Source: Dictyostelium discoideum
Lineage: Eukaryota
Direction of reading: 5' to 3'
NCBI GenBank assembly: GCA_000004695.1
Contig: CM000155.2
Span: forward strand, 1,664,001 to 1,728,000
DNA length: 64,000 nucleotides
Shown: in pieces, positions 161 through 61,131 of the stretch
Position numbering within the stretch: the stretch's first letter is position 1
Layout of the letters: every line of letters starts with the position of its first letter
Position numbers and translations under genes: made by a program
The notes under the pieces: model-generated
What the model saw: only the letters and a program-made list of their open reading frames with translations
Told to the model about the DNA's origin: nothing
Database searches by the model: none

Positions 161-227
161 TTCTTGAAAAAAAAATTTTTTTTTTCGTATCTGGCGCCGA
201 TTAAAGATAAAAAAAAAATTAACAGAG

Positions 228-2382
228 ATGGAAGACAGAATCGAAGAATATGAGGTTAAGCTAGCAATAGAAAAGATAGCAGAAGGTAAATCACCAGGAG
301 AAGATGGAATAACATCTTCATTCTATAAAATCCACCAACACAAACTAATTCCAATCCTCACAGAACTATTCAACTTCTTTTTAAACAATGAAATTCCAAC
401 AGAATTCAAGAACGGTATCCTTACATCAATATACAAAGGTAAAGGGGATGTCTTGGAAATCTCAAACAGAAGACCAATAACGTTACTCAACGTAGACTAC
501 AAAATCTACTCAAAAATAATCAACAATAGAATACTAAAAATCCTGCCAAACATAATCTCAAAGTACCAGAACGGTTTTATACCAGGAAGGCTACTCCACA
601 ACAACATTATAGCTTTGGATTTAGCAATGGAAAAGAGTGATAGAAACACGATAATCACCTTTTATGACTTCGAAAAAGCCTTCGATTCAATATCTCATAA
701 AGCGTTAATAAGGACTCTAAACCATCTAAAGTTCCCTCGGAAAATAACAAACACAATACTAAGCATGTTAACGAACACCAACATAAGGGTCATGGTAAAT
801 GGACAACTCTCTGAATCCTTCAGAGCAGGAAGAGGTACAAAACAGGGCGACCCAATTTCACCAACTCTCTTCGCTATAGTATGTGAATGCTTATCAACAT
901 CAATAAGAAAAGACAATACCATAATAGGCATAAAACTCAATCAGAACAATTCGATGAAGATTGGACAATATGCAGACGACACAGTCACACTAGCCAGTAA
1001 CATAGATGACGCAGATAAAATGGATATGAAAGTTATAAAATTTTGCCAAGCCACAGCAGCAAAAATAAACGATAATAAATGTGTGTGCATCACTAAAAAC
1101 CCAAAGATAAAGACCAAATATAAGACAATTGGGGCGAAAGAAGAAGAAAGATATCTTGGCTTTTTCTTCAACCGCAAAGGTGTAATAAGCAAAGTAGATG
1201 ATACGGTGAACAAACTGGAAAACCTCACAAAATGCTATTCGAGCGTGTCATCAACGCTAAAAGGTAGAATCACAATCCTCAAATCATACCTGCTGTCCCA
1301 ACTAACATTCCAACTATACATCAACGAAATAAATGACATAAAGAAACTGGAGAACGTTAATGCCAACATGTTATTCAAAGGGGACAGGTGGGCTATCTCA
1401 AAAGAAAGGAGCAGAAGAGACTATGAAATTGGAGGCCTGGAACTCTGGAATATGGCAACCAGATCCAATGCCCAGAAAGCATGGATATACGAACAATACC
1501 TCAGAGAAAAAGACGACCAGAACTGCCCTCCACATATGGAAGTCTGGAAGTCGGAAAAAGAAAACTCACTATCAAGGATTCACATCAAATGCTGGAAAGC
1601 CTGGAAGTTGTTGCACCACCCAAGAGAGCGAATAACTCTCAAACTAAACCAAGTCAAACCCAAATACGAAAACAAACAAAAATTAAAAGTAATCTATAGA
1701 AACATGATGGATATCAAATACAAGGGATGGAACAAACACCAGCCAACAACAGGTCAAAAACTGATTCAAAAGAACATTAATCACCCAATTCTACCATTCA
1801 GAGAAGCCAGATCAATCACAACTATCAAAGGAAGAGACTTAGCATGGAGATATCTACTCAAGGCACTTCCAAAACACCATGGGGAGAATTGCCACTCATG
1901 TAAAGAAGAAGAATCGTCTATGCACATCTTCTTCGAATGCAAATCAATAAAACAGAATATCGACTCAATCTATCAAAAGGTCTGTAAAGACTCCAACAAC
2001 ACTTACCACGGTCCATGGAGCGAAAAAGTTCTCGGAAAACTACTCACACCATTCTCATCAAATCTGATAGGAGCCATTATGGAATCGATATGGTACAGAA
2101 GAAATCAAATAAAATTCAACGATAACACTACAATAATAACAGAGAACCAAATAATTCATAAAATCAAAAAAGCGAGAGATGCCGAATGGGATAGAACAAG
2201 AAAGATAGTAGAAAAACAACTACGTCAAGAACTAAGATGCACTGATAACCGAGAGTCAATCAATCGGACCGCATCAATAAAAAGAAGACTCGAAAAATTC
2301 AGCCACAACTGGAACTCGAAACTCATGACCATAAACATCCCGGAACACTTCATACCATACTGCTCATATAACACCAACTACT

Positions 2383-2387
<5 letters not shown>
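228..2387 (+). CDS. Retrotransposon ORF2 fragment (RT domain + CCHC zinc knuckle); no APE endonuclease domain, so 5'-truncated
   Basis: 719-aa ORF from the track. RT motifs and a CX2CX8HX4C zinc knuckle are present. The ORF begins inside the RT domain. Confidence 0.85.
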
Positions 2388-4117: not shown

Positions 4118-5979
4118 TTAATTTAAATATTTTTTTAACCATAATGAAATATTAACCCATTGATCTAAACGAGCATCAATTGAATCAAGACTATGACCAG
4201 TTTTTGGATACATTAAACATTTTGTTGGTACATCTCTTTCTCTTAACATACGATAATATAATAAACCTTGAGAAGGTGGAACACGAAGATCTGAATCACC
4301 TAAAGCTAATAATGATGGAATTTTGATGTTTTCAATATGGAAACTTGGTGAACATTTTCTCATTTTTTCAATTTCTTCCATTGATGGTAATGTATGATAT
4401 TGAGAGGTTGGATCAGAGAGATTAATACCAGCTTCAAAGAAACACCAATCTGGAATATCGGATAAGGTTGACATTGATGGAATATCGATTACAGGATTTC
4501 TCATGATTGAAGTTTTGACAATTGGGAATCTACTTAGATGTGCTGATAAGAAACCACCATGACTACCACCAATAACACCAATTTTATTTCTATCGATTGT
4601 ATTATCGATTTTATCGAGTGTGTAATTAATTGCTTGAACACAATCGTCAACATCCAAATCACCAATATAACCTGGTAAACAATCTACGAAATCTTTACCA
4701 TAACCTGTTGAACCTCTATAATTTGGAATTATAATATTATAACCCAATGAGAGTAAATAAGTGATTGTTGAAACATAACCAACATCTAAATTTGAATGTG
4801 GACCACCATGAATGAAAACTAAACAACCCAATGGTGAAGATTGTGTACTATTTTTATTCTTTAAGTAAATCAATTCAAATGATTTAATTGACTCTGTGTA
4901 TGGTTGTGGTGTTGGTTTTGATACTGGTACATTATGAATGGTTGCATTAAATGATTTGAAAATTGAATTACATTGTTCACTTGGTTTTGGTGAGTAAATT
5001 AATTGTTTCTCTTTATCACTACCCAAATAATCAACTAAATAAACTTTAGTTGGTTGATTTACTGATGATTCACCAATTAAATATTTCTTTGATTTAAAAT
5101 CAATATCATATAAAACATAAAGTTTTGGTTCTTCGTCACCACCATCAGTTGATGATGGAATTTTAATAATTTTCAATTCCTTTGATTCATAATTAAAAGA
5201 AACAATCATTTCAGTTGATCTAATAATTGTTGAAAATAAAAATGTTTTTTCATCAATAAATGGTCTCTCTGGTAATGATTGACAGAAAACACCTGGGAAT
5301 GAATCATTAAAATTCTTATAATCCAACAATGTTTCAAATGATTGTGGTGGTTGTTGTTGTTGAGTGATATTGTTTGAAGACCAATTTAAAGAGAAAATCT
5401 TTGAACAAGTATCATGAGCATAAATTCTTTCGTTAAAACCCAAGAAAATTAATTTTGAAGAATCTGGTGTAAAACGTGGTGATCTATAACAACCATTATT
5501 ACCATTTGGAATTAAATTTACAATTTGCAATGGTGTTGTTAATTTGGTTTGTTTTGGATCCAATTTTTGGTTCTCTTTCCATTGATTTCTAGCATTAATA
5601 AACTCTTTGAAATTTAAATGATACAATGAACTTGATCTATTGAAACATGCTCTAATACCAAGTTTTCTTTTACCAAAATTCCAACCAACATAAACTAATC
5701 CCTCACCATTTGGTGTCCAAATGACTTGACCTGCTGATATCTTTTCAGATGGGAATGGTTCAACTGGGAATACAACCTCCTTTTCAATATCTAATATAAA
5801 TATTGATGGATTTGCAACTGGTGAATAAGTTTCACCCCAATCATCTCTAAATACAAATTGATCACCAATAGCTTTATCTTTTGGTTCCTTATCAAAAAAT
5901 CCTGTTACATTTAATTTTGAATCTGCAATAAATGCTACATATTTCTCACATGGTGACCATGAAAAACTACCAAACCATT
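4118..5979 (-). CDS. Acylamino-acid-releasing enzyme / acylaminoacyl peptidase (S9C prolyl oligopeptidase family), exon 2
   Basis: GFSWSPCEKYVAFIA, GDQFVF..DWGE, GGPHS, YRGSTGYG and GGSHGG (catalytic Ser motif) align along the length with APEH. The N-terminal MEFLLILFIFFFFKKKK of the tracked ORF is read-through of the intron. Confidence 0.8.
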
Positions 5980-6073
5980 CTTTTTTTTTTTTAAAAAAAA
6001 AAAAAATAAATAAAATTAATAAAAATTCCATTATTATTATTATTATTATTATTAAATTTTATTAATTACAAAC

Positions 6074-6506
6074 CATCATTTAAAATTTTTTTATGAATAT
6101 CTTTTGAAGTAATTGAAGTAATTAAATGTGAACCATCAGTAATATCAAAAGAGAATTCGAATTCAGTTGAAGGGTTCTCTTTAATTGTTAAAACTTTCTT
6201 ATGTGATGGTGATACTGATATGATTGAAGTTGCTAATTCTTGTTGAATTGCTGATGAAATTACTTGGTTTTTCTTTGATGATGATGATGAATCTTTTAAA
6301 ATTGTTTTTTGTGACATATAAAATTTAGTTTTCTTATTGGTGATATCAATTTGAGATACAATGATTGATGCTGATGTTTGATTTTCATTACTTTCATCAT
6401 TGTTTGTAAAAAATGCGTTGTTGACTGTTGGAATTGATAATAACTCCCTGTAAACTTTAGTTGTATCTTCTCTATACTTTATTTCTTGTTCACTTAAACT
6501 TTCCAT
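6074..6506 (-). CDS. Acylaminoacyl peptidase, exon 1
   Basis: MESLSEQEIKYREDTTKVYRELLSIP resembles the APEH N-terminus. A phase-1 GTTTGT donor at 6073 and an AG acceptor at 5981/5980 give a 94-bp intron and the junction ...ILND-E-WFGSFSWS, which parallels human ...DDCFGCLSWS. Confidence 0.65.
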
Positions 6507-7354
6507 CTTTTATGTCTCTTTTTGAAAAAAAATTAAAAAAATAAAAAAAATTAAAAAAATTAAAAAATTAATTTAAACCACCACTTATTAAAAAAAAAAA
6601 ATAAAAAAAATAAAAAATTAAAAAAAAATAAAAATAAATTAAATTGCGAACTTAAAAAAAAAAATTCTCACACAAACTACCTTTCATAATTTTTTTTTTT
6701 TTTTTTTTTTTTTGTCAATAAATTAATCAATTAAAGATCTTTGATTTAACTCATATTTTTTTTTTAAAAAAAATAATAAAAAATAAAATTTAATAATTGT
6801 TTTAAAGGGAATGAAAAACAAATTAAAAAAATTTTTTTTTTTTTTATAAAAAAAAGTGTAAAATCTGAATATTTTTTGTTTAATATCAATAAAAAAAGTA
6901 AAAAAAAAAAAAAATGATTTTCCAAAAAAAATTAGAAAAAAGAAATTTATTAAATGTTAGGGTTAGTTATTTTTTTTCCCCCTCCCGAAAAATTTTAATA
7001 TTTTTAATAATAAAAAAAAAAAAATATGGGTTTTTTTTTCCCGTCCATTATCATATTTGCATCATTTTTTTTTTTTTTTATTTTTTATTTAATTTTTAAT
7101 TTATTTTTTGAGTCAATCCTGAAAAAAAAACCAAAAAAAAAAAAACCAAAAAAAGAAATTAAAAAAAAAAAAAAAAAAAAAAAAACAGTGTTTATATTCT
7201 TTTGATGGTAACCGAAAGAAATCAAAATAACATATAGTTGAAACATAAACTCTTACAATTCTTTAAAAATAATAATAACCCCAAAAAAAATAAAAAAAAT
7301 TAAAAAAATTAAAAAAAAAATAAAAAAAAAAAAAAAAAATAAAAAAATAAAAAA

Positions 7355-11387: not shown

Positions 11388-12477
11388 CTTCTTATTTTTG
11401 TGTTATTAATTATTGATTTTTAAGATTAAACCTAATCCTTTTTTAATAAATAAAGATATTAATCTTTACTGTTTTTTTTTTCACATTATTTTTCCCAACT
11501 GCAAAATTTTTTTTTTTCCAAAATATTTAATGATCTTTTTAAATTTATATCCAAAATGTTTAAATATTTGAAAAAATAATAAATAAATGCACATATATAT
11601 ATATATTAATATAATTCGAAAATTTTAATTTTTTTTTATTCATATTTTAAAATAACCATCTTCTTTTTTCATTTTTTTAAATTATTTTAATCTCAAAAAA
11701 TGGAAAGTTAGTTCTTTTTTTTATTTTTAATATTAACTTTTTATTTTTGTCCTACTGTTTTTTTTTTCAAACATTGTGTTATTTAAAAAAAAAAAAAAAA
11801 ATATCCCGAATAATAATAATAAAATAAAGTAATAAAATAAAAGAGATTGCAAATAAAAGAGTTATTTTTAAAAAGTATAAAAAAATAAGAAAAAAAGGTA
11901 ATCTAAAAAAAAATAAAAAAATAAAAAAAAAAAAAAAAATAAAAAAAAAAAAAAAATAAAAAATTGTCAACACGGTAACACTAAAAAAAAATTTTTTAGA
12001 AAAATAAAAAAATCAAAAAATTTTGCGTCGCGCATTCGTTTTTGAATTTTTTTTTTTTTTTGAAAATTTTTTGTTAGTTACAGAATACAGAAAAAATGTA
12101 TGTTGGACTATATCACATATCACATATCACATATAATAATTTAATGTGTGATAATATAACTCAATCAATTCACTCTCTCAAATTTGAAATATAATTATAT
12201 AATGATGGATAATAGTTGATTAGAGATATAATAGATAGAAAAAAAAAAAAAAGAGAAGGATTGAGGATATAGGATATAGATTATCAAACCACAATTACAG
12301 GTACACAGCATTAATTTTTTCAATCTTTAATCTTTAATTTCAATCTATCTTTAATCTTCAATAATTCAATCAACATATAAATTTATAAATCAAATGAAAG
12401 AGAAGGAGAAAGAGAGACGAGTAATATATAAAATATAGATTATGGATTATTAATATTGATTTAAATTAATTAATTAG

Positions 12478-13186
12478 GGCTCTTGACAATAAATTTGTTG
12501 CTAAAGGATTAAGACTCTACAGTGCTCGTTCTGTCGCAAACAGAACCAAGACCTTTGTTGCCAAGAAAAACAAGGTTGTTGCACCAAAGAAAGTTGTTGC
12601 CCCAGTCACACCAGTTGAAAAGACTTTCGGTAAAGGTAAACGTGTTATTGCTGCCAAAGCTTCCAAATTTGCCCCATCCATCCCAGCCGAAATCAGAAGC
12701 ACCGCTGCCAAAAAAGTTCAACAAAAAGTTGCTCTCCGTAAATCAATCACCCCAGGTACCGTCCTCATCATCCTTGCTGGTCGTTTCGCTGGTAAACGTG
12801 TTGTTGCCTTAAAACAATTAGACTCTGGTTTAATTTTAATCACTGGTCCATTCAAAGTTAACGGTGTCCCATTACGTCGTATTGATCAAAGATACGTCAT
12901 TGCCACCTCAACTAAAATCGACGTCTCAAGTGTTAAAGTTGCTGCCACCATCAACGACGCTTACTTTGCCGCTGAAAAGAAATCAACCACTAAATCTGAA
13001 GGTGCTTTCTTCAGTGACGAAAAGAAAGCTGAAAAGAAGAAAATCGCCGACTCACGTGTTGCTGACCAAAAATCCGTTGACTCTGCAATCTTAGCTGTCC
13101 TCAAGAAAGAAAAATTCTTAACTGTTTACTTAAAGACTAAATTCTACTTGAAGAAAGGTGAATTCCCACATCAACTCAAATTCTAA
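12478..13186 (+). CDS. rpl6: 60S ribosomal protein eL6, main 3' exon; the 5' exon(s) are not resolved
   Basis: ITPGTVLIILAGRFAGKRVVALKQLDSGLILITGPFKVNGVPLRRIDQRYVIATSTKIDVS...GEFPHQLKF* matches eL6. Codon use is GC-rich as in highly expressed genes. The frame opens at an AG at 12476-77 and there is no in-frame ATG, so it is missed by the M-start ORF track. Confidence 0.75.
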
Positions 13187-35684: not shown

Positions 35685-36548
35685 TTAATAATTAATTGGT
35701 GGTGTAATTGTTGGAATTGGTTCATTTGTGTTTATGCTCCATTCTTTTTTAAATTTTTTGATGGTTTCGGACCATTGGGTTTCTTTTTGAGTTTTTGTGA
35801 GGTTGTTTTTAATTGAGTATTGGTTAAAGTTTGATAATGTTCTTGAATATTCCAATCTTATTAGCTTGTGCCATTTTGATTTTAATATATCATAATCTAG
35901 TGTTATGTTGTTTATTTGGTTGTTCCAATTGTCAATTGATTGAGTTATATTGATGTCAAATAATGATTTGCATAACCATATCCATATTTGGTGAATAACT
36001 AATGAGATTATGTTCCAATATGCATGTGTTCTGACTAGATCAAGATTTGTGTTTATATAATTCCAGTTGAACCTGTATTTTTTATATTGTGCGTTTTCTG
36101 CAAAATGAAAATTAATATTGATAGTTGGATCTGGTTTAAATGCTTTGTTGTTTGTTTGTGGTTTATCAATGAGTGTGTATAATTTTGTTGTTTGGTTTTT
36201 TGTTAGTGACCAGTTTTTGTTTCCATTGCAATTTTTATATATAAAATATTTTAATTTGTCGTGGTTTATGAAGTTGATTGTGTGCTGACAATTGAAAAAC
36301 AAATGACCATAGGGATCATTATTCATTTCATTGTTGCAAATGGGGCAAACTTTGTTGTGTAGATGATTAATCGGAAGACATCTAGCATGGAATCTTTGCT
36401 TGTATAACGGCCTTTTGGATCTTTTAATTTTTGAATTTTGACAAATAGTTGGTCGTATGTGTATTTCCATAATAGTTGTATTGATTGTTGGTGCGAAGTA
36501 AGAAGTAGATCTGAATATTTCTTGCCAACATAGTCTTTTGATTTGCAT
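35685..36548 (-). pseudogene. Retroelement ORF2 remnant, C-terminal part, in a different frame from the RT part
   Basis: HARCLPINHLHNKVCPICNNEMNNDPYGHLFFNC aligns with the zinc-knuckle region of the first element. It overlaps the upstream frame by about 225 nt. Confidence 0.65.
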
Positions 36549-37988
36549 TGGTGATTGTTGAGTATTGTCGAGTAGATTTCTTTGAGTGTTGGTGGTAGTG
36601 AAATATTATTTGTGGTTAATGTTTGAGAGGTTTGGTTTTTTGTTAATATTGGTTGTAGGGTTTGAACTTTATCTTTTAGATGTCCAATTTGAGTTGCATA
36701 GTTTTCCCATTCTTTTTTGATTTTTATCAGGTATGGAGAAGAGATTGATTTGTTGATGATTTGATCCATCCAACTTATCATGTATATTGAGTTATTTGCA
36801 GATTTATGCATTTGTAAAAATCTGTTGTATATCCATATCTTTTGAGCAACTTGTCGTAATTGTATATTCCACATACCCCAACCACCTTCTTTTAATGGTT
36901 TTAATGATATATCATAACACATCAAAGGTATTTTTGCACGTGAATGGATGGTTGATGTGTTGTTTTCAATGGAATTGGTATTGAGAGTTGGTGATTCAGA
37001 ATTTGAGGGAGAATTCATAAACCATGAGATTAATTTATTAATTTGAATTTCTTCATCTTTTGTAAATTCTTCAAGGTATGATAAATATGTTATTGGTGAT
37101 AGTGAGTAGGTGTTTATTATGGTTGTTTTTGTTTTTAATGTTGTGCCACTAGTTTTCCATAGTACTAATGATTTGATCAGTGTTTTCATTGTTTCTGGTA
37201 ATTTCCTATGTAAACCATTATGATTAAAGAAATAGCCAAGAACTCTTTCTGATTGATCTTTTTTGGTTATTGGTATTCTTTTTGATTGTGGAATGTTGTT
37301 TATTATGTGTTTATCAGTGATTTTGTGGGGGTTGATTTCTATTATTGCACTTTTGTTAAAATTTAATGATGATGATGTTGAAGAGCAGAAATTATCGAAA
37401 TGTTTGATTGATTGTTGTTGTTGTTGTTCGTAGTTGATGTTGTATGTTGTAGAGTCGTCTGCAAATTGGGTAAATTTGATTTTAATTTGTGGATTGGGTG
37501 AAATTGGTAATCCAATTATTGTATTGTCTGCATATATTGTTCTAGCTAATATTTCAATTACAATTACAAATAAAGTGGCTGAGATTGGGTCACCTTGTTT
37601 TACACCTCTTTTAATATCGAATTTTCTGGTCGTTTTACCATTAATTGAAATTTTTGCTTGTGAGTCAGATAATAGCTTGTGGATTAAATTTATTAATTTT
37701 ATTGGTATACCAATATTAATTAATGTTCTTTTAATACTATCGTGAGAGATAGAATCAAATGCTTTAAAGAAGTCAAATAGTGTGATGATACCAGGGAGGT
37801 TTTTAGATTTGAGGTAATTGATTAATTCATTGATGTTGATGATGTTGTCTATGATGAATCTGTGGGGTACGAAACCAGTTTGGTTGTTGTTGATAATGAA
37901 AGGAAGTATTCTCAGAAGACGTGCATTGAATACTTTTGAGAGGATCTTGTAATCAGTGTTTAGAAGTGTAATGGGACGACGATTTGAT
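36323..37988 (-). pseudogene. Retroelement ORF2 remnant, RT part. Open from the truncation point to a stop at 36323
   Basis: Continuous minus-strand frame ...LNNLSNRRPITLL...GDPISATLFVIVIE...FADDSTTY...GGWGMWNIQLRQVAQKIWIY...ATMK*. Confidence 0.7.
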
Positions 37989-38356
37989 AAATTATTTAAT
38001 TAAATTTTTTTTTTTATTTTTTATTTTTTATTTTTTTTTATTTTATTTTTTTATTTTAAAAAAAAACAAAAGATTCTTAATTTATTAAAATTAATCTTGA
38101 TTAGATTTTTTTTTTTTTTGGTTTTCGTTTTGGTTTACTGTGTGTTTGTTGAGGTTTTTGTATTAAAAGGTTGAGGTTTTTGTATTAAAAGGTTGAGGTG
38201 TATTTGTGTGTGTGTATGTGTGTTGATGTTTTGTTGACGTTTTTGCAGTTTTATGTAAAAATTTTACAATTGATTATTTCTTTTTATTGTTTTTTTATTT
38301 TTATTATTTATTATTTATTTATTATTTATTTTTATATAATTTGAAGTATATTATAT

Positions 38357-39244: not shown

Positions 39245-39274
39245 ATTATAAACAAAAGATTTTAAAAAAAAATT

Positions 39275-39347
39275 CGCCCAAAGGGGGGCTCGAACCCCCG
39301 ACCACAAGGTTAAAAGCCTTGCGCTCTACCGACTGAGCTATCTGGGC
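39275..39347 (-). tRNA. tRNA-Lys (anticodon UUU), 73 nt
   Basis: Reverse complement GCCCAGATAGCTCAGTCGGTAGAGCGCAAGGCTTTTAACCTTGTGGTCGGGGGTTCGAGCCCCCCTTTGGGCG. Acceptor stem GCCCAGA/TTTGGGC, anticodon loop CTTTTAA and B box GGTTCGAGCCC. Confidence 0.85.
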
Positions 39348-40174
39348 ATTTTATTAGAATTATTTTCTTAATATAAGATTTTATAGAGTATATATATAAT
39401 ATAACTAGTATCTCAAAGCAATTAAAAATATCAAATTGTTGGTATTGAGTTATTAAAAAGAATCGTGTTATTTATTTCTTCGTTTTAATTTATCATTCTG
39501 TTATACAATAAGTTAATTTGTAAAGTAAATTTATTTAGGGTGTAATCAAATTTAAAAAATATAAAAAAATAAATGAAAAAAAAAAAAAAAAAAAGTGAAC
39601 TTTTGGGTAAAACGTACGTTAAACATTACAAGGGTTACAACAAAATGACCCTATATAGATTTTTATTTTTTTTTATTTTTTTTGAATTTTTTTTTAAATT
39701 TTTTTTTTGAATTTTTTTTTTTTAATTTTATTTTTAAATTAAATTTGATACCAAAGATAAACAAATGAGCTGTTTAAAAAAAAAAAATAAAAATAAAAAT
39801 AAAAAAAAAAATAAAAATAAAAAATAACTAATAAATTTCAAACAGAAATAATAACAATAATAATAATCTAGATTTATTATAAAAATTAAGAAATCCTATT
39901 AATAATAATAAATAAAATTTTTTTTTTATTTTTTTTTTTTTGTTTTGGTTGTCCCCCTTTTTAATTCATTGTTAATTTTTTATTTATTTATTTTCTATTT
40001 ATTTTTTATTTTTTTATTTTTTTTTTTTGTTCACTTAAATATATTTATATATATATAATAATTATTGAATAAATAAAAAAAAAAAGGCGGGTTGGGTGAA
40101 CAAAAAAAAAAAAAAAAAAATTATTTATTTAATTATTTATTTAATTTTAATTTAAAAAAAAAAAAAAAAAAAAA

Positions 40175-44625: not shown

Positions 44626-44719
44626 GTAAGTGTATAAAAATTAAAAAAATAAAAATAAAAAATTAAAAAAATAAAAAATGAAAATTAAAAAATTAAAATA
44701 ATAAAAATAAATAAAATAG

Positions 44720-46848
<2,129 letters not shown>

Positions 46849-46860
46849 TATGTTGGGGGG

Positions 46861-46925
<65 letters not shown>

Positions 46926-47272
46926 AGTAATTAATAATTCAAATAGTTAAATAGTCATTAATTAAAATTTTGATAGTTTGACTATTTAATTTTATTATTT
47001 TTTTAAAAAATATATTTAAAAATTAAATAAAAATAAATCAAAAAAAAAAAAAAAAAAAAAAAAAACATAAAGTCAATTGATTTACCATAAAGTTCAAAAT
47101 TCCACAAAAACATATTTTTTCTTTGAATCATCAAAAAAAAAAAAATCTATTTTAATTTTTATTTTTTTTATTTTTTTATTTTTTTTTGGTCATCATAAAT
47201 CAGAAATTCTAATTTTAAAAAAAAAACAAAAATAGTTAAATAAATAAAAAAAAAAAAAAAAAAATTTAAAAA

Positions 47273-47824
47273 ATGACAACTAAATACATAGTTTTGGTTA
47301 GAGCACTTAGTACAAAGATTAAAATGAAAGATTTAAAAGATCAATTAGAAAAGATTAAAGGATTTAAAAATTTAAAAACATTTTTTACAACTGGAAATAT
47401 TATTGTGGATGTACAACAAACAATGACTAAAAAAGAAGTTTGTATGGAGATTTCAAATGTTCTATCAAATGAATACCAAATGGAGAAACCATTGATGGCA
47501 ATTTTCAATATTGAAGAATATAATGATATATTATCATCAAACCCATATGAAAAATCAAATGAAACTAAAACTGTGATTTTCTTTCCAATTAATGAATTTT
47601 TAAAACAATCTGATTGTGATAAAGATAAAGATTTCATGACAAAATCATCTCAATGGCAATTAGTAAATGGTGTCATTTGGTATTTAGGTCCAACAACTGG
47701 TACTGCTTCTGATGTTAAAATTTTTAAATTAATTGAAAAAAAGATAAAACCAGGTTCAAATCATGAATATACATTTCGTACTTTAAGATCAAGTCAAAAA
47801 ATATTAGATACTGCAAATAAATAA
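47273..47824 (+). CDS. DUF1697-like protein (bacterial-type family), 183 aa, intronless
   Basis: MTTKYIVLVRALSTKIKMKDLKDQLEKIKGFKNLKTFFTTGNIIV follows the DUF1697 N-terminal pattern (M..YI.LLRGINVGG...M..L...L...GF..V.TYI.SGNVVF). Length is typical of the family. Confidence 0.5.
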   Translation: MTTKYIVLVRALSTKIKMKDLKDQLEKIKGFKNLKTFFTTGNIIVDVQQTMTKKEVCMEISNVLSNEYQMEKPLMAIFNIEEYNDILSSNPYEKSNETKTVIFFPINEFLKQSDCDKDKDFMTKSSQWQLVNGVIWYLGPTTGTASDVKIFKLIEKKIKPGSNHEYTFRTLRSSQKILDTANK

Positions 47825-48189
47825 AATAAAGTAAAAATAAAATAAAGTAAAATAAAATAAAATTAAATAAAATAAAATAAAATAAAATAAATAAATTATT
47901 TATTTATTTTTTTTATTTTATTTTTTATTTTTACTTTATTATTATTATTTTTTCTATAACAAAATTAATTTTTTCAGTTTTTTAAAAAAAAAAAAAAAGA
48001 TTTGTTTTTTTTTTTTTCTCTTTTGGTAATTTAATTTTTTACTTTATTATTTTTTTTTTTTTTTTTTTAATTAATTATTTTGTTTTTCCTTTTCTCCAAA
48101 TATAAACTTTTTTATTTTTTTTGTTTTTTATAATTTTGTTTTACTTTTTCTATTATATATATTTTTTTTTTATTATCAAATATAACACA

Positions 48190-48315
48190 ATGGAAAATAA
48201 CTATTTTTGCACAATAAATGATTTATTATTAGATACATCACTGATTGTTGATGAATATTCATGTCCTCTTTGTAATCAAATATTATATAAAGCTGAAATT
48301 TATCAATGTAAAGAG
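48190..48315 (+). CDS. TRAF-like protein, putative exon 1 (start of RING: CPLCNQILYKAEIYQCKE)
   Basis: ATG ORF ending at a GTATGA donor. No canonical AG acceptor exists before the next coding segment. Confidence 0.35.
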
Positions 48316-48459
48316 GTATGAAGTTGAAATAGTAAAAAAAAAAAAAAAATTTAATTTCTAGATTTTAATGAAAGTAAAAAAAAAAAAAAAAAAACTAATT
48401 TTTCATTTTTTTTTTTTTTTTTCTGTTTCAACAAAAAAAAAAAAAAAAAAAAAAAAAAT

Positions 48460-49525
48460 TATTGGGGATTTTGGAATTGTAAAGAATGTTGGTTAGATTT
48501 AATAACAGAAGGTGAGCAGCGTAAAGATTGTAAATGTATAATTCAATCAATTAATGATTTATCAAGATCAATATTCATTGAAAATAAATTTTCAAATCAA
48601 AAAATAAATTGTCCATTTTCATTTTCATATATAAAGAAAGATTATCAATATATTGGAGGTAGTGGTGATGATGATGATGATTATGATGATGAAAATGATT
48701 CAATACCATTAATTAAAGATAAAGAGAATGGATGTAAACAAATAATTACAGTGGAAGAATTAGATACACATTTAAAACAATGTCAATTTAAATTTGTTGA
48801 ATGTCCAAATAAAAAGAATGGTTGTGAAATTCAATTTAGATTTAACAAATTAGAGATTCTAAAAGATCATGAACAAATATGTGATTCAAGATTTGAAAAA
48901 TGTAAACATTGTTTAGAATTAATTGTATTTAAAAATTTAAATTCTCATCAAGATCAATGTATTAAAACATTAATTGAGTGTATTAGTTGTAAAAGTCACA
49001 TTGAAAGAGGAAAATTGAAAAAACATTTAAATCTAAATTGTCCAAATGAAATCGTTGATTGTGCATTCAAAGCCAATGGTTGTAATGATCAAATGAAAAG
49101 AGTCGATCTATCACAACATTTATTAATTTCAAAACATATGTTATTCATTTCAGAATCGATTGAAAAACAGCAAAATCAAATCCAACATACTAAAAGAAAA
49201 TATTTAAAATTAAAAAGAAAAATTCAAGAAATTAATGAAAATTCAATTAATAAAATTTATGAAAATGATTGGTTCATAAAGAATTTTACAAAATCAAAAA
49301 AAAAAGTTGGTTCTTTTTTTTTAGGTCCTGAATTTAAAATTGGTTCTTTTGAATTTGGTTTATCATTGTATCCAAATGGTAGAATTGATACATTTGAAAA
49401 TCATTTAGTAATTGCATTATTTGAAAAAAGTGGTCTTTATAAATCAGTAACTGTAGAATCTGATTTTACATTAATTAATAAAGAAGAATCTGATAATAAT
49501 AATAAAAACTATTTTTTTGAAAATT
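48460..49525 (+). CDS. TRAF-like protein, main exon (rest of RING, TRAF-type zinc fingers, start of MATH domain)
   Basis: ...NCKECW..., repeated C/H-rich TRAF-zf motifs (ECPNKKNGCEIQF...HEQIC, ECISCKSHI...HLNLNC, CAFKANGC) and a MATH domain (WFIKNFTK...GSFEFGLSLYPNG...HLVIALFEKSG). The 5' boundary is uncertain. A GTAAGT donor lies at 49526. Confidence 0.6.
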
Positions 49526-49645
49526 GTAAGTTAAAACTAAATTATTTTAATAAAAAATTCTATACAAATTCTAATTAATTTATTTTTATTTAATAATAAC
49601 AACAACAATAACTTTAACAACAATAACTATAACAACAACAACAAC

Positions 49646-49794
49646 AACAACAAATAGTAATTCAACCAAAAAAATGGTATTGTAATAGAATGATGAAATT
49701 TGAAAAGATCAACAAAAATGGGTTTTTAACTAATGATACACTACATATAAAGTTTAAAATTGAAGTTTTTAATTGGATTTTAACACCTTTTGAG
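49646..49794 (+). CDS. TRAF-like protein, terminal exon (C-terminal MATH strands)
   Basis: AAATAG acceptor. The phase-1 junction gives ...FFEN-L-IQPKKWYCNRMMKFEKINKNGFLTNDTLHIKFKIEVF...*. Confidence 0.55.
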
Positions 49795-49801
49795 ACAGAT
49801 G

Positions 49802-53074: not shown

Positions 53075-53408
53075 ATGATTGAAAGTCAAAGGGAATTTAA
53101 TTGTATTGGTGGTGATAATCAGAATGGTGTCGCAGTTATTGGTGTAGGTTTTAAAATCCCATTAGATCTAGAAAATTGTTTATCAAGTCCAAGTGAATTA
53201 TATTCAGCATTATTTAATGAATTTGATAGTGTAACAAAGAATACAAGTTCACGTTGGTCTGATAACTATTTTAAAAATGGTGATATTGTTAGTCTTAGTG
53301 CAGGTTTATTACCACTCAGAGAAATTAAATCATTTGATCCAACTTTTTTCGGTATTAATCCATCCGATGCAGATTTAATTGATCCTCAACAAAGATTATT
53401 ATTAAAAT
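53075..53408 (+). CDS. Type I polyketide synthase (PKS) gene 1, exon 1 (N-terminal KS region)
   Basis: MIESQREFNCIGGDNQNGVAVIGVGFKIP...DPQQRLLLK then a phase-1 GTAACT donor. Typical Dictyostelium PKS N-terminus. Confidence 0.8.
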
Positions 53409-53480
53409 GTAACTTTTTTTTATTTTATTTTTATTTTTATTTTTTTATTATTAACAAATTTAATTAAATAAATATATTAG

Positions 53481-53798
53481 GTGTTTGGAATGCATTAGAA
53501 GATGGTGGTATTGACCCAATCAGTATTCGTTCATCAGATACTAGTGTCTACATTGGTTGTTCAACTATTGACTATTTTCTTTTAAATAGAAATCCTGTTG
53601 ATCCTCATAATCATGGTATTCAAACCGCAAGTTATTCAATTCCAAATAGAATATCATATTGCTTTGATTTTAGAGGTGAAAGTTTGTTTGTTGACACTGC
53701 ATGTTCATCATCACTAAATGCAGTTCATCTTGGTTACAATTCAATTATAAATTTAAAATCAAAATTATCAATTGTTGGTGGTTCCAATTTAATTTTAG
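53481..53798 (+). CDS. PKS gene 1, exon 2 (KS active-site Cys: DTACSSS)
   Basis: [27 protein letters not shown]...[17 protein letters not shown]...GGSNLIL. A GTATGA donor lies at 53799. Confidence 0.8.
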
Positions 53799-53914
53799 GT
53801 ATGAATTATCTTTTTATTTATTTTTTTTTTTTTTTTTTTTTTGTACTATTATTAATATTATTATTAATATTATTATTATTATTTTTATTTTACTGACATA
53901 TATATATTTCCTAG

Positions 53915-54568
53915 ATCCACAAAATAGTATTTTTTTTTCTAAACAACAGGTGAATGGTCCAAGTGGTAAATGTAATAGTTTTTCAGAAGAAGCAGATGGC
54001 TTTGTTCGTAGTGAGACAGTTGGTGTAGTAGTATTAAAGAATTTAAAAGATGCAATTAAAGATGGTGATAGAATTTATTGTGTAATTCAAGGTTCAAATT
54101 CAAATGTTGACGGAAATTATGAAAAATTAAATTATATTTCACCTTCAAAATTATCACAAGCTGAAAATATTACCAAAGCATTAAAATCAACAAATGGTGC
54201 GGTGAATGCATCTGATATTGATTATTTCGAATGTCACGGTACTGGTACACCAACTGGAGATCCAATCGAATTAGAAGGTATATCAATTGCATTAAATAGA
54301 ACTCAACAATCTACAACATTATCAAATCCACTTTTAATAGGTTCAATTAAATCAAATATTGGTCATGGTGAGGCAAGTAGTGGTATAGCCAGTTTAATTA
54401 AATGTTGTGTAATGTTTAAATATCGTCAATTTTTACCAAATATTAATTTCAAAACACCAAATCCATTAATCAAATTTAAAGAATGGAATTTAAAAGTTGT
54501 AACTGAACCAGTTCCATTCAATAATAATAAACAAACTATTATGGCAATTAATAATTTTGGTGTTTCTG
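53915..54568 (+). CDS. PKS gene 1, exon 3 (KS C-terminal half with the two catalytic His residues)
   Basis: [23 protein letters not shown]...[14 protein letters not shown]...[11 protein letters not shown]...NNFGVSG. A GTAAGA donor lies at 54569. Confidence 0.8.
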
Positions 54569-54652
54569 GTAAGATTTTAATATAACAATAATAAGAGCAA
54601 AACAAGATAATCAAACTACTAATATTTACTATTTTTTATTTTTATTAAATAG

Positions 54653-57600
54653 GATCAAATTGTTGTATTATTTTATCAGAATATAAAAGTAATAACAACA
54701 ATAATAATGATTTTAAAGCAACAACACATTTAAAATCAAAGAAATTTATTATACCATTTTCATCAAATTCCTCAACATCATTAGACAATTATAAATCATT
54801 ACTTTCAAATGAAACAAATAATTTTCAAGATTTTGTTATTAAACAAATTAATAATAAATCAACATCATTAATTCAAAGATCAGTAATCATTGCAAGTAAT
54901 TGGAGTGAATTTAATGAGTCATCAAATGAAATTCAATCAAATATTAAAAAATCAATTATATCTAATATCACAATTAAAAAAAAGAATGCAGTTACAGTAT
55001 TTGTATTTTGTGGTCAAGGTTCGCAATATAATAAAATGGCATTATCATTATATGAAAATGAACACATTTTCAAATCAACAATGGATAAATTAGATAAAGA
55101 ACTATCCAAACACTATGGGTATTCAATTTTAGAAAAATTAAGATCAATTACAGATGAAGATTTAGTAACAATTCATCAACCAATTTTAGCAATTCCAGTT
55201 AATGTAATGGTTCAAGTATCTCTATATGAATTGTATAAACATTGGGGTATTAAATCAGATATTATGGTTGGTCATTCGTTTGGAGAAATCGCTTGCTCTT
55301 ATTGCTCTGGTATGGTTGATTTTAAAACATTATGTTATTTAACATACCACAGATCAGTAGCTCAGAATAAAACAATTGGATCAGGTAAAATGTTATCAAT
55401 TAATATTGGTGCTAAAGAATACTTGGATTCTTATTCAACTAAATATCCATCGGTAGAAATCGCATGTTATAATAGTGAAACATCAATCGTTATTGCAGGC
55501 AATGAAGAATTATTAAATGAAATTTCAAAAGATTTAAAATCAAAAGATATTTTTACAGCAATGTTACCATCATTATCAGCATTTCATACAACACACCAAT
55601 CAGTTATTAAAGATGATATTTGCTCATTGAATTTTAAATCGACATTATCAAAAATAACAGTATTTTCCACAGTCACATCTAATCAGTTTGGTATTAATAA
55701 TAATAATAATAATAATAATAATCAACTTAATTCAAATTACCTTTTTCAAAATGTTATTCAACCAGTTAAATTTAGTGAGACAATATCAAATATATATAAA
55801 TACATTGAATCAAATGATATGGGTAATGAAATAACATTTATTGAAATTGCACCACACCCAACATTACAATATTATTTAAATCAAATGAAGTCACAACAAT
55901 CAGAATACTTTAATAATGGTGAAAAGATTTCAATCTATTCAGCATGTAATAAAAAGAAGAATGATTATAATGAATTTTTAAAAACAATTTCAACATTGTT
56001 TGTAAATGGTTATAATAATATTAATTTTAAATCTCAAATTATTAATAATAATAATAATGATAATAATAATAATTTTAATTTACCATTATATCAATGGGAT
56101 GATAATGAATATTATAAAATTCATCCAACATGGAAAAAAGCAAATAAAAATGGACCATCAATTAATCATCTTGGAAATCTAAATGATTCTTCAATTAAAT
56201 CATTTAAAACCTATATTAATACAAGAAAACCACAATTCCAATGGTTAAAAGGTCATTCTTTAAAAGGAAAAGTTGTATTCCCTGGTATGGGTTATATTTC
56301 AAATTTACTCTCAGTTTATAATATGAACCAAGATATTACAATTAATGAAATTCAATTCAAAAGTGCATTTATTTTAGTCGATGGTGTTAATAACTGTTTA
56401 GAGACATCGATTGTACCATTAACAAAGAATGAATTCAATATTAAATTTCATTTTAAAGATTTAAAAACAAATAAATGGGTATTATGTGCAAATGCTAATT
56501 ATAGTTTATTTAAACATAATGATAATAATGATAAACTTGATATTGAAAAATTAAAATCTAATTGTAATTATACAATAATTTCAAAAGATGAATTATATAA
56601 TAATATTAGAGCTAAAAGTGGATTGATTTATAAAGGTTTATTTCAAGGTGTTAAAGAAGCTTTCATTGGTAATAGATGTTCGTTAACAGTTTTATCATTA
56701 AATGAAATTGAAAACCAACAAGAGTTTAAACATTTATTAGAGAATAGAAACTTCAATTCATTATTTAATACAGCAATTTTAGATTCATGTTTACATGGTT
56801 CACTTCACTCAAAAGAACAATCTCAAATTTATTTTGACAAATGTGAAGGTTTTAAATATTATTCAAACAATATTAATTTAGCAACTTCGAAAAGAAATGA
56901 GTACAAAGAGATTAATGTTTATATTGAAACGAATCCCGTGATCAATTCAACAGTTATTGTAAGTTTAAAAATTATGTTACCAGATGGAACATTATTAATT
57001 GAAATTCAAAAAGTAGTTTGTAAATCATCAATACCAATTATTGATAGTACCTCAGTTATTCAACCATCACCAAAAGATTTACACACACCATATTATCAAC
57101 CAAAAAACTCATTAATTAAACCACCACAATCATTTAAACATTTACATTGTATGAAAGAATTTGCAAGTATAGAATCTGATAATAGAGAAATGGTGTATAT
57201 GTCAATTTATCATTTAATTTTTAAAGCCATCAATGCTAGATCTCCAACAAAAATCAATTTAGAATCCCTTGAAAATTTAACATTAGATCAATTTAAAGAA
57301 TTAATAAAAGACAGTGCAGCAAATATTCAACGTTCCAATCAATTTATATATGAATGTTTAAAACTATACCATACAAATCATTCAAATTATAAAAAAAATC
57401 AAATTAAAGATTTTATTAAAGAATGTGAAGATTTTAATGGATATAATCAAATAATTTTTAAAACAATTAAAATCTATGCAAAATCATTATTCCCATTACC
57501 AGATGACGATCCATTTACAGATACAATTCAATCATTGTTTGAAGATGATCAATTAGAAAACGTTTACATCCATTTAAAACACCTTTATCCAGTAAACAAT

Positions 57601-58074
57601 TTATTAAGTGAAATCGTTTTTCAATCAATTAAACCAATAATAAATCAAACATCAACATTTAGAATTTTAGAAATAGGAGCAGGTTATGGTACAATCTCAC
57701 AATTAATATTTGACAAACTCGAACAACTATTAGCAGATAATTTCACATCATCAAGAATTGATATAGAATATACATTTACTGATATTTCAAATACTTTCTT
57801 ACCAAGAGCAAAAGAGAGATATTCAAAATATAAAAGATTCAACATAATTTACAAACTCTTAGATTTAGAACTTCCTTTAACAGAGGGAATTCAAGATTTT
57901 AGACCATTATATTATGATATAGTTGTTATGTCAAATGTTTTACATGTTGTAAAAGATATTAATTTCAGTACAAATGAAATCTATAAAGTTTTAAAACAAA
58001 ATGGTCAATTAATATTTGTAGAACCAACATATAAAAATTTATATCTTGATACTATATTTGGCATATTTCCACAA
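54653..58074 (+). CDS. PKS gene 1, exon 4 (linker, AT with GHSFGE, DH with HSLKGKVVFP, C-methyltransferase with LEIGAGYGT)
   Basis: Continuous frame from the tracked ORF 55036-58089 extended upstream to the AG at 54651-52. A GTAAGT donor lies at 58075. Confidence 0.8.
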
Positions 58075-58136
58075 GTAAGTAGTTATTAATATTTATTATT
58101 ATCTATTTATTAATCTAATATATTTTTTTTTGTAAG

Positions 58137-58504
58137 TGGTGGTCATTTAATGATGATATTAGAACTGATAGATGTTGTCTTGAACCTTCAAAATGGTTTG
58201 AATTTTTAGAAACAATTAATTTTAAAGATACAATTATTTTGGGTCAAGATAACAAAGAAATCTTGAAAAATGTTGAAAATTCAATAATATTAGTACAAAC
58301 TAGAAAACCATCACAACTTGAATTATCGATAAATAATTCACCATCAACCAACCAATTCAAATCTTTTGAAAACATAATATTATATACTGATGATAACCAA
58401 CAACCAAATGATTGTAGTGAAATTATCGATTTATTAAAATCATTAGAACTACCAATTAAAATAATTAACAATATAGACCAATTTAATCAAATTATTAAAA
58501 CACA

Positions 58505-58571
<67 letters not shown>

Positions 58572-61053
58572 AATAACAATTTAATAATATTTTTAAAATC
58601 AGTTAATCAATTAAATACTAATAATTATAAAGATATTACATTTGAATATGTTCAAATCAATCAAATTTTAGTAAAATTAGAACTTGAAGAAAATTATAAA
58701 TTATTATTAATAACTAATAATTCTCAATCAAGTAATTATTTATCAAATTCATTAATTGGTACATCAAGATATTTATTTGCAGATATAGTATCATCAAAAT
58801 TAGATATTATTACAATTGATTTCGATACCGTTTCAATTAAGAACCATCAAAATGTTATATCAGTTATTAACCATTTATTAGATTCAAAAGATAATAGTGA
58901 AAGAGAATATTATATTATTAATAATGAAATTAATATTGAAAGATATAAAAATGAATCAAATATTAAACATCAATTAAAATCAAAAACCTTTCAAGAAAAT
59001 AAAGATGAATTAATGGTACAATTAGACTCAAATTTAGAATATAGATTAAAATCAAAATCAAAACAAGAATTAAAATCAACTCATGTTGAAATTCAAGTTA
59101 AAGCAATTGGAATTAATTATAAAGATTATGCAACTTACAGTGGTTTAATCGATTCAATCATAGAAATTGATAAAGATAAAGAAAAGGATGAAAATTATGA
59201 CCAAAATTATCCAAGTATTGGTAATGATTTTAGTGGTGTAATTACAAGAATTGGTAGTGATGTTAGAAAGTTTAAAGTTGGTGATGAAGTATGTGGTTTA
59301 GCACCTAAAACATCCGCTTCACATATTATCACTGAAGAAGGTTATCTTTGTAAGAAACCATCAAACATTAGTCACTCTGAAGCTGCATCATCAGTAACAG
59401 TTTACACAACATCATTTCAAAGTATTTATAGCATTGGTGATTTAAAGAAAAATGAAACCATATTAATTCATTCAGGTAGCGGTGGTATTGGTTTATCTGC
59501 ATTGGAAATATTAAAATGGAAAAATCATCAAGGTTACATATTTGCAACTGTAGGCTCTGAAGATAAAGTTAAATATTTAACAGATACCTATGGTTCATTC
59601 ATAACTGGTATATATTCATCCAGAGATAAGGACTATCAAGATCAAATTAAAGAGAAATTAAAATCATTAGGTTGCGATATCGATCATCAAGGAGTAGATC
59701 TAATATTGAATACACTATCAGTAGAGTACATGGATTCAAATTTTAAATGTTTAAATCAAAAAGGTAGATGTATTGATCTTTCAATCACTCATTTAACTCC
59801 ATTTGATTATATGGATTATAATAAATTCAAATTCAATGTTTCCTATGGTAATATTGAACTTGTTGTATTACCATCCAAAATTATTAAAGATCATTTAAAA
59901 AAGATGCTTAAAGCCTTTTCATTAGGTAGTTTAAGATTTATACCTATTGTTGAATTTTCAAATTTGAATATAAGAAATGCAGTCGAATACATTAATCAAC
60001 GTAAACATATTGGTAAAATTGTAGTAAAGAATGATGTTGATTTTATAAATAAATTATTTATTGAACAACAACAACAACAAAACTCTGTTGAAAATAATGA
60101 AATTTTAATGAAAGATAAATATGATATTTCAAATTTAGAACTTGGTAAAAATATATTATTAACTGGTCAAACAGGTATTATTTTAACTATATTAAAATGG
60201 TTATATAAACATTCAAATAATTCAATTGAAAATATTATTATAATTTCCAAATCAAAATTAAAATGGGAATTAGAATTATTTATAAATGAATCAACTAATA
60301 ATAGAATTAAAATTCATTATAAACAAGCTGACGTTGGTAATAATAATGAATTAAATCAGTGCTTTGAAGAATTAAGATTACGACATTCAATTGAAGATAT
60401 TAATTCAATTTTCCATTTTGCATTTATTAATGATATTGGTCAATTTGAAGATGTTAATATGAATCGTATGGATATCGCTCATCATGCTAAAGCAATTGGT
60501 TCACTTAATTTACATAACCAATCTATTGAACGTAAATGGAATATTAAACAATTTGTATTGGCATCTTCGGCGTTATCAGTATTTGGTGGAGACAACCAAT
60601 GTTGTTATATCAGTGCTTGTTCAGTTTTAGACTCCTTATCAAAGTATAGAAAATCAATTGGTCTTCCATCTTTATCAATTAACTTTGGTGGTGTAACATC
60701 AACTGGTTTCGTATCTCGTAGTGGTGCTGTCGAAGCTAACCTTGAAAGTTCTATTATCAATTTAATTACACCACAATCATTAATTTCTTCATTGGATTTA
60801 TTTATTCAAAACTCTCAAACCTTTTCAAACTATACTCATTTCAATTTCATATATGATAATATAGAATCATATTCACTCAACAGAATGTTATTTAAATTTG
60901 ACTATTTAATCAACCAACATTCCTCATTAGTTTCAAATAAAAGATTAGGTGGAATAAATGAAAATAATAATATTGGTGATTTATTAGTATCAAAAATTGG
61001 TGAACTTTTATCAATTGAGCCATCAAAATTGAATTTAGATTTTAGATTAGTTG
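58137..61053 (+). CDS. PKS gene 1, exon 5 (ER with GSGGIG; KR with LTGQTGII Rossmann motif)
   Basis: The frame continues across a 62-bp intron (TTGTAAG acceptor). A GTAAGT donor at 61054 is phase 1. Confidence 0.8.
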
Positions 61054-61131
61054 GTAAGTTTTGTTTTTTTTTATTTATAATTTTTATTTTATTATTACTA
61101 ATCTTTTCTAAAAATTAATAAATAAAATTAG

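Follow-up and report, generated by a model that had tools for sequence, protein, structure and literature searches.

Classical candidates for gene transfer from bacteria to Dictyostelium are said to have been put forward by Eichinger in 2005. Sixteen candidate transfers from bacteria to Dictyostelium discoideum were retained in a published table of such genes, which includes the families DUF885, DUF1121, DUF1289, DUF1294, OsmC, Thy1 and IPT (Sucgang 2011; PMC3188802, Table 2). The gene described here is an open reading frame of 183 codons at 47273-47824 (+) in a 64,000-nucleotide stretch of D. discoideum DNA (assembly GCA_000004695.1, contig CM000155.2, positions 1,664,001 to 1,728,000), hereafter the window, and its product belongs to the DUF1697 family (PF08002). 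It is probably a functional, host-adapted Dictyostelium gene that goes back to one ancient transfer of a bacterial DUF1697 gene, followed by duplication and divergence. Like the published transfers, it belongs to an otherwise bacterial Pfam family and has an orthologue in D. purpureum, so that its acquisition would predate the radiation of group 4, and several of the published families are, as DUF1697 is, of unknown function. Unlike them, DUF1697 is absent from Table 2, is present in several copies and extends beyond group 4, to Tieghemostelium lacteum and Polysphondylium violaceum. A literature search found no paper linking DUF1697 or PF08002 with Dictyostelium.

Two described proteins are the closest points of reference. 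The first is PPERSA_00010290, a PF08002 protein of the ciliate Pseudocohnilembus persalinus, which is listed as horizontally transferred from Bacteroidetes (PMC4614350) and is the sole other eukaryotic case found in the literature. As in Dictyostelium, a DUF1697 protein of a bacterivorous microbial eukaryote is attributed to bacteria, in a member of another eukaryotic supergroup. This protein was not among the best matches to the dictyostelid queries, and its existence implies either two or more entries of DUF1697 into eukaryotes or a distribution among them slightly wider than the searches show. The second is SP0830 of Streptococcus pneumoniae (PDB 2HIY), a bacterial structural-genomics entry and the one DUF1697 structure that has been solved, which shares 15% identity with the D. 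discoideum protein. The complete RGINVGG loop, the SGN turn and TxRN are all present in SP0830; in the D. discoideum protein, the loop is missing and so is the Asn of TxRN.

The reading frame runs from ATG to TAA, and its translation begins MTTKYIVLVRALSTKIKMKDLKDQLEKIKGFKNLKTFFTTGNIIV. With the 23% G+C of the window, a random codon is a stop with a frequency of ~0.093, i.e. one per ~11 codons, and ~0.002 frames of this length would be expected by chance in the whole window across six frames. A scan of Pfam with hmmscan matched the protein to PF08002 with 74.6 bits (E=1.3e-20; gathering cutoff 24.4), and nine of ten dictyostelid relatives match the same profile; an NCBIfam scan of the protein gave no match. 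GCA_054883475.1 carries an identical protein, annotated on a 2.2-Mb contig as a gene of one exon, the 90%-identity cluster that contains it is represented by a protein from 'Dictyostelium cf. discoideum', and public databases already name the D. purpureum, D. firmibasis and P. violaceum proteins 'DUF1697 domain-containing protein'. The initial annotation, made from the letters of the window, had thus read the gene correctly in several respects: the N-terminal signature and the length of 183 residues that it quoted are exact at this position, the search against PF08002 that it proposed produced the DUF1697 hit whose absence it had named as counter-evidence, the gene is intron-free in the annotation of GCA_054883475.1, and both neighbouring genes do contain introns. 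The features of the gene are as follows.

47273..47824 (+): complete single-exon coding sequence of a DUF1697-family protein, 183 codons plus TAA (open reading frame, PF08002 match, annotation and selection analysis)
47279..47680 (+): segment encoding residues 3-136, aligned by hmmscan to positions 2-137 of the 137 positions of the DUF1697 profile
47300..47326 (+): residues 10-18, RALSTKIKM, a shortened beta1-alpha1 loop where the family has R-G-I-N-V-G-G-x-x-K-I-x-M (alignments and AlphaFold2 secondary structure)
47378..47398 (+): residues 36-42, TFFTTGN, a degenerate form of T-Y-I-Q-S-G-N in the beta2-beta3 turn (conserved-column table)
47771..47782 (+): residues 167-170, TFRT, the C-terminal T-x-R-N motif (conserved-column table)

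The gene is not alone in the social amoebae. Orthologues, all of them intronless, are found in D. citrinum (89% identity), D. firmibasis (84%) and D. purpureum (52%), and further relatives are a second D. purpureum protein (P0005), two proteins from different strains of D. cf. discoideum (P0006 and P0010), one each of T. lacteum (P0007) and P. violaceum (P0009), and a EukProt entry (P0012) that groups with P. violaceum in trees. In an exhaustive phmmer search of 1.84 billion representative sequences, dictyostelid or dictyostelid-like sequences supplied seven of the nine top matches (ranks 1-4, 6, 7 and 9), namely two from D. purpureum, two from D. cf. discoideum, and those of T. lacteum, P. 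violaceum and P0012, and no named bacterium ranked above Listeria floridensis, with an E value of 1e-7. Identity to the window protein is 36-89% for the dictyostelid relatives and ~30% at best for bacteria. At least six species of dictyostelids carry the family. T. lacteum belongs to the Raperosteliaceae and the remaining species with copies to the Dictyosteliaceae, and the family is therefore older than the split between these two groups. Every intact dictyostelid gene (7/7) consists of a single exon, its length being three times the protein length plus one codon, and for this reason the missing introns say nothing about when a transfer took place.

The genomes of the D. discoideum complex hold two more paralogous loci, B and C, both frameshifted in the assemblies examined. 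Paralogue B (L005 5001-5550, D. cf. discoideum GCA_054859235.1) is annotated with a 67-nucleotide intron; a reading of this interval as intron gain was rejected, as it excises 22 conserved codons and hides a frameshift at EEYN/ISSNPF. In paralogue C (L006 4753-5402, D. cf. discoideum GCA_054859205.1), one frameshift near 4965-4980 has broken the coding sequence into two frames, and the annotation covers only the C-terminal 133 residues (P0010). This paralogue has the four-residue loop deletion of the lineage of the window gene (lineage A) and its GS insertion. To judge from their sequences, B and C are either pseudogenes or products of homopolymer errors in the assemblies.

The window copy itself has an intact frame in D. 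discoideum, D. citrinum, D. firmibasis and D. purpureum. The ratio of nonsynonymous to synonymous substitution rates (dN/dS; Nei-Gojobori) is 0.19 between D. discoideum and D. citrinum, 0.23 between D. discoideum and D. firmibasis and 0.19 between D. citrinum and D. firmibasis, at dS values of 0.34-0.48, and these values speak clearly for purifying selection. The G+C content at third codon positions (GC3) is 0.137, compared with a host median of 0.135 (17 open reading frames of the window) and a bacterial median of 0.30 (73 DUF1697 genes), and the GC3 of each dictyostelid homologue follows that of its own genome, e.g. 0.42 in P. violaceum. As it equals that of the host, GC3 leaves no compositional trace of a foreign origin.

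Beyond the dictyostelids, the matches are bacterial as far as they are named. A profile of the dictyostelid sequences retrieved 4181 proteins at E<=1e-3, every one with PF08002, and the named non-dictyostelid ones are all bacterial among the matches listed (Flavobacteriia, Listeria and Paramesorhizobium). The best named matches of this search after the dictyostelids are Flavobacteriia (Tenacibaculum, Polaribacter and Muricauda), and the less derived P. violaceum protein, used as a query, retrieves metagenomic proteins and an alphaproteobacterium. No eukaryote outside Dictyostelia occurs among the top matches of four large searches, and the contigs checked for the closest non-dictyostelid matches are bacterial, with dense overlapping genes or operons. 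The top matches are skewed in composition toward A+T-rich organisms, and a donor therefore cannot be named from rank order by itself. Nothing speaks for a viral vector: a search of BFVD for structural matches (E<=0.001) came back empty, and 2.9 million IMG/VR contigs gave one weak relative.

Trees were built from L-INS-i alignments in which the frameshifted paralogues had been repaired, using maximum-likelihood gamma (ML-gamma) distances with a rate matrix derived from Gonnet and bootstrapped neighbour joining, on sets of 106 or 141 taxa with alpha values of 0.7, 1 and 2, as well as after Dayhoff-6 recoding. In all five ML-gamma or Dayhoff-6 point trees, ten dictyostelid sequences form one exclusive clade. 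Within it, lineage A and paralogue C are sisters, with bootstraps given as 98-100% and, for the ML-gamma trees on the two taxon sets, as 80-99%, and the dictyostelid core without P. violaceum and P0012 reaches 66-73%. The group beside the dictyostelids is always the same, consisting of P0025, P0014 and P0015, i.e. two Listeria species and one bacterial contig, and the dictyostelid clade plus this sister has a bootstrap of 16%. Five states that are close to fixation in dictyostelids and rare in bacteria (a residue other than Gly at 11, T40, L64, Y83 and I106) were counted independently of the distance trees but in the same alignment: dictyostelids hold three to five of them, 227 of 287 other sequences hold none, and three occur together only in P0014 and P0025. 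One ancient acquisition is the best reading, though its single origin has weak statistical support, and a Listeria-like lineage of Bacillota is possibly, and again with weak support, the donor.

Several points weigh against a single bacterial transfer. The dictyostelid clade as a whole has a weak bootstrap of 34-47% with ML-gamma distances and 22% after recoding, and a first neighbour-joining tree, made with Kimura distances, an automatic MAFFT alignment and fragmentary paralogues, lacked the clade because the distances were saturated at 1.2-1.5. The trees are distance-based and unrooted, and nesting inside bacteria is therefore not a formal result. The signals for a donor conflict, since Listeria-like Bacillota are indicated by trees and rare states, Flavobacteriia by the profile and Alphaproteobacteria by the search with P. 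violaceum, and a common amino-acid composition driven by A+T content could inflate similarity both among dictyostelids and between them and A+T-rich bacteria. The survey of eukaryotic members covers the top matches of each search, and the family could also occur in other Amoebozoa, including Acytosteliales. As to function, the argument for a ligand site given below consists of an analogy with ACT and HMA domains and of secondary structure, and no consistent functional partner emerges across bacterial neighbourhoods. The proposal of the initial annotation, a bacterial-type and horizontally acquired gene, holds in part: its view of the family as largely bacterial agrees with the profile search, horizontal transfer is the best explanation of the gene, and the phylogeny that it had called for yields one dictyostelid clade in the corrected trees, at the low bootstraps given above. 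The idea of a lone, recognisably foreign gene is not supported, given its orthologues, its paralogues and a GC3 that, in the comparison which the same annotation had suggested, carries no foreign signature.

The same trees bear on whether one transfer sufficed. Several independent transfers, in which the window lineage with paralogue C, the P0005/P0007 group, and P. violaceum with P0012 would have come from separate bacterial donors, are unlikely. They would account for distances between the dictyostelid groups of 1.0-1.5 substitutions per site, which are about equal to those to the nearest bacteria, for the low bootstrap of the inclusive clade, and for the bacteria among the sequences nearest to P. 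violaceum by distance. Separate donors are at odds, however, with all corrected or recoded point trees, which return one clade of exactly ten dictyostelids, and with the rare states at 11, 40, 64, 83 and 106, which are common to all the groups and jointly absent from 285 of the 287 other sequences.

Vertical inheritance, with DUF1697 present in an early eukaryote or in the amoebozoan ancestor and then lost nearly everywhere, appears still somewhat less probable. The age of the family in Dictyostelia, its fully host-like composition and the lack of an identifiable donor all fit such descent, as does the sampling of eukaryotic members from top matches only. Against this, the best matches of the four large searches include no non-dictyostelid eukaryote, the ciliate gene is itself reported as a transfer from Bacteroidetes (PMC4614350), many independent losses would be required, and three of the five rare states are common to the dictyostelids and one Listeria-like bacterial group.

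If a single bacterial transfer is taken as the origin of the gene, the protein has since departed far from its family. Among 124 bacterial members, 28 positions are conserved at >=80%, and they cluster in three elements, namely RGINVGG between strand 1 and helix 1, TYIQSGN in the turn between strands 2 and 3, and TxRN before the last helix. The window protein retains 10 of the 28, T. lacteum 21 and P. violaceum 20. In the beta1-alpha1 loop (RAL----STKIKM) four residues are deleted and only the Arg of RGINVGG is kept, the Asn (99% in the bacterial members) and both Gly residues (the second 93%) being absent. In TFFTTGN, T36, G41 and N42 are retained, the latter two being invariant in 132 sequences, while Q39 and S40 have been replaced by Thr. 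In the C-terminal motif, T167 and R169 are retained, N170 (Asn in 96% of bacteria) has become Thr and T173 has become Ser. As judged from sequence comparison, the protein is a homologue of DUF1697 by descent, yet one of a divergent subfamily, and the activity of the family should not be assumed to be shared.

The fold appears intact. An AlphaFold2 model built on a 132-sequence alignment has a mean predicted local distance difference test score (pLDDT) of 87.2 and a predicted template modelling score (pTM) of 0.83, and shows the two-domain fold of SP0830 (~170-185 residues), with a strand at residues 2-9 and a helix at 18-26 flanking the shortened loop. Searched against the PDB, the family profile finds 2HIY as its sole match (E 2e-30), and a single-sequence search with the window protein gave a spurious 11-bit match only. 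A marginal PADLOC match to Cas6, obtained with the window protein alone, was discounted.

In ACT and HMA domains, the ligand site is formed by the loop between strand 1 and helix 1. Both are ferredoxin-like modules that bind small ligands or metals, and their likeness to DUF1697 is one of functional analogy rather than of family membership: Pfam HMA_2 scores 14.8 bits with the window protein (cutoff 30), which lacks the CxxC metal motif, and, unlike ACT and HMA, DUF1697 has a second domain and a different set of conserved residues, with no significant sequence similarity to either. By this analogy, DUF1697 proteins may bind or act on a small molecule at the beta1-alpha1 loop.

The history of the gene can then be pictured as follows. 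A bacterial DUF1697 gene would have entered the dictyostelid lineage once, before the Dictyosteliaceae and Raperosteliaceae diverged, and duplication after entry would have raised the number of loci in the D. discoideum complex to three or more. Of these, the window copy is the intact one, conserved by purifying selection in D. discoideum and in the three other species that carry its orthologue. Its product is predicted to be a small, soluble alpha/beta protein of two domains resembling SP0830, with a ferredoxin-like beta-alpha-beta-beta-alpha-beta arrangement in the N-terminal half. The ancestral protein most likely bound or acted on a small metabolite at the beta1-alpha1 loop; with the deletion of four loop residues and the replacement of five other near-invariant residues in lineage A, the fold was probably kept and the ancestral ligand specificity changed or lost.

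The loss of motifs resembles a shift in function more than it does decay, because the derived sequences RALSTKIKM, TFFTTGN and YTFRT are conserved among four species, being identical in D. discoideum, D. citrinum and D. firmibasis and nearly so in D. purpureum. That the window copy is a decaying relic, non-functional and drifting, is very improbable. Such a view could appeal to the lost RGINVGG loop, to the 18 of 28 conserved positions that are gone and to the frameshifts, in the assemblies examined, at both other loci of the D. discoideum complex. A drifting copy would nevertheless hardly keep an intact frame in four species, a dN/dS of 0.19-0.23 at dS of 0.34-0.48, the same derived motifs and a confidently modelled fold. 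A more specific proposal is that lineage A and paralogue C form a eukaryote-specific, neofunctionalised DUF1697 subfamily that has discarded the loop, with the sister paralogues and the T. lacteum and P. violaceum orthologues keeping the bacterial-type site; it is offered tentatively, as a possibility with the odds against it.

The neighbours of the bacterial homologues were surveyed at 73 loci, mostly from Bacteroidota (Flavobacteriaceae), which were gathered with 20 bacterial sequences. At 32 of them, an HI0933-like flavoprotein lies upstream of the DUF1697 gene, with genes for diphosphomevalonate decarboxylase, a GHMP-kinase-like protein and a UbiA prenyltransferase downstream. The corresponding same-strand array (loci L013-L092, the DUF1697 match lying at ~6001-6530 of each) reads GDPD, HI0933-like flavoprotein, DUF1697, diphosphomevalonate decarboxylase, GHMP-kinase-like protein, UbiA and pseudouridine synthase. 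The best bacterial match (L010 4154-13230, Logan SRR10135559 contig) lies between kynurenine 3-monooxygenase and RidA in a kynurenine-pathway operon, which also encodes kynureninase, aldehyde dehydrogenase, 3-hydroxyanthranilate dioxygenase and an ACMSD-like amidohydrolase, and in which the DUF1697 gene begins one base past the end of the monooxygenase gene. Kynurenine monooxygenase is a neighbour at 6 of the 73 loci (Tenacibaculum/Polaribacter), and another homologue adjoins a PMT_2 glycosyltransferase. A function deduced from these neighbourhoods was rejected, as they vary from clade to clade, are conserved within one bacterial family and may reflect synteny by descent.

The locus in the window is ordinary Dictyostelium chromosome, genuinely integrated and not a contaminant, because host genes, transfer RNA (tRNA) genes and retroelements lie on both sides, orthologues are syntenic and the composition is that of the host. 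Its immediate surroundings are as follows.

44635..46882 (+): upstream host gene with introns, 717 residues, very long polyglutamine tracts and no Pfam domain (annotation of GCA_054883475.1 and translation of the open reading frame)
46883..47272 (no strand): intergenic DNA on the upstream side, typical of Dictyostelium, with an extreme A+T content and long stretches of A (sequence; boundaries from the annotation)
47825..48189 (no strand): intergenic DNA on the downstream side, rich in A+T (GC ~0.12), where repeats full of AATAAA stand right after the stop codon (sequence and composition)
48190..49800 (+): downstream host gene of TRAF type with introns, 444 residues, zf-TRAF and MATH domains (annotation and Pfam scan of the large exon)

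The public gene models give the upstream gene 2248 nucleotides for 717 residues, ~94 of them intronic, and the TRAF-type gene 1611 nucleotides for 444 residues, ~276 of them intronic. In the upstream reading frame (44770-46848, +), the polyglutamine and Q-rich repeats are extraordinarily long, with units such as QQQSLPQMYEQ, and its antisense frames yield long spurious open reading frames; a Pfam scan of its C-terminal 315 residues found no domain. In the stretch 48317-48480, intron 1 of the TRAF-type gene has a clear GT start, the donor standing right after exon 1 at 48317, and no AG was seen from ~48375 to ~48465, where the RING/zinc-finger frame (GFWNCKECW) resumes. The promoter of the DUF1697 gene presumably lies in the upstream intergenic region. 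Intergenic DNA on this side of the gene has ~63 uninterrupted A at 46860-46922 and another run of ~27 A at 47040-47066. The 500 nucleotides of the 5' flank have a GC of 0.114, and the flanks overall are 11-12% G+C. D. citrinum keeps the gene order around the locus, D. firmibasis keeps part of it, and D. purpureum does not keep it.

A recent transfer or bacterial contamination of the assembly, to which an intronless gene of a bacterial-type family might at first suggest recourse, is hardly credible given the A+T-rich Dictyostelium intergenic DNA and host genes around it on a megabase contig, the syntenic orthologues in D. citrinum and partly in D. firmibasis, a GC3 equal to that of the host, and relatives that are closest in dictyostelids (36-89%) and only ~30% identical in bacteria; an unameliorated recent transfer is ruled out by the host GC3, the presence in at least six species and the best bacterial identity of ~30%.

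Further observations concern the wider window. A TRAF-type gene with zf-TRAF and MATH domains adjoins both the window gene (48190-49800) and paralogue B (L005 1-1244), which may reflect an old segmental duplication, or just that TRAF-like genes are numerous in Dictyostelium. A large multi-exon polyketide synthase gene with acyltransferase and methyltransferase domains (53075-61115, +) follows the DUF1697-TRAF pair, in D. citrinum too. A tRNA-Cys(GCA) gene (88-161, -) lies near an RVT_1 reverse transcriptase frame at 168-2384 (+) with a GC3 of 0.41, and a tRNA-Lys(UUU) gene (39274-39348, -) near another at 36326-37999 (-) with a GC3 of 0.27; both frames, adjacent to tRNA genes and raised in GC3, show the pattern of the tRNA-gene-targeted retrotransposons of Dictyostelium that lack long terminal repeats. 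An exon of ribosomal protein L6e (12470-13183, +) has a GC3 of 0.357, compared with the window median of 0.135, which fits the codon bias of high expression.

For the biology of Dictyostelium, the finding is that DUF1697 joins the few bacterial-type families that have become fixed in social amoebae, from whose published lists it is absent. The acquisition would reach back at least to the common ancestor of Dictyosteliaceae and Raperosteliaceae, with duplication and the remodelling of conserved sites afterwards. It also corrects the idea that an intronless gene of bacterial type amid intron-containing genes marks a recent transfer. The practical value of the finding is modest. It represents another ordinary case of ancient gene transfer and neither opens nor settles a major question. 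Its less ordinary feature is a copy that is under selection and yet lacks the signature loop of its family. The gene also points to a tractable eukaryote in which a large bacterial family, as yet uncharacterised, could be studied. If the loop-less lineage is indeed a neofunctionalised subfamily, Dictyostelium would offer a natural pair of proteins, with and without the loop, with which to probe a family of more than 4000 clusters and the way in which a domesticated copy has been re-used.

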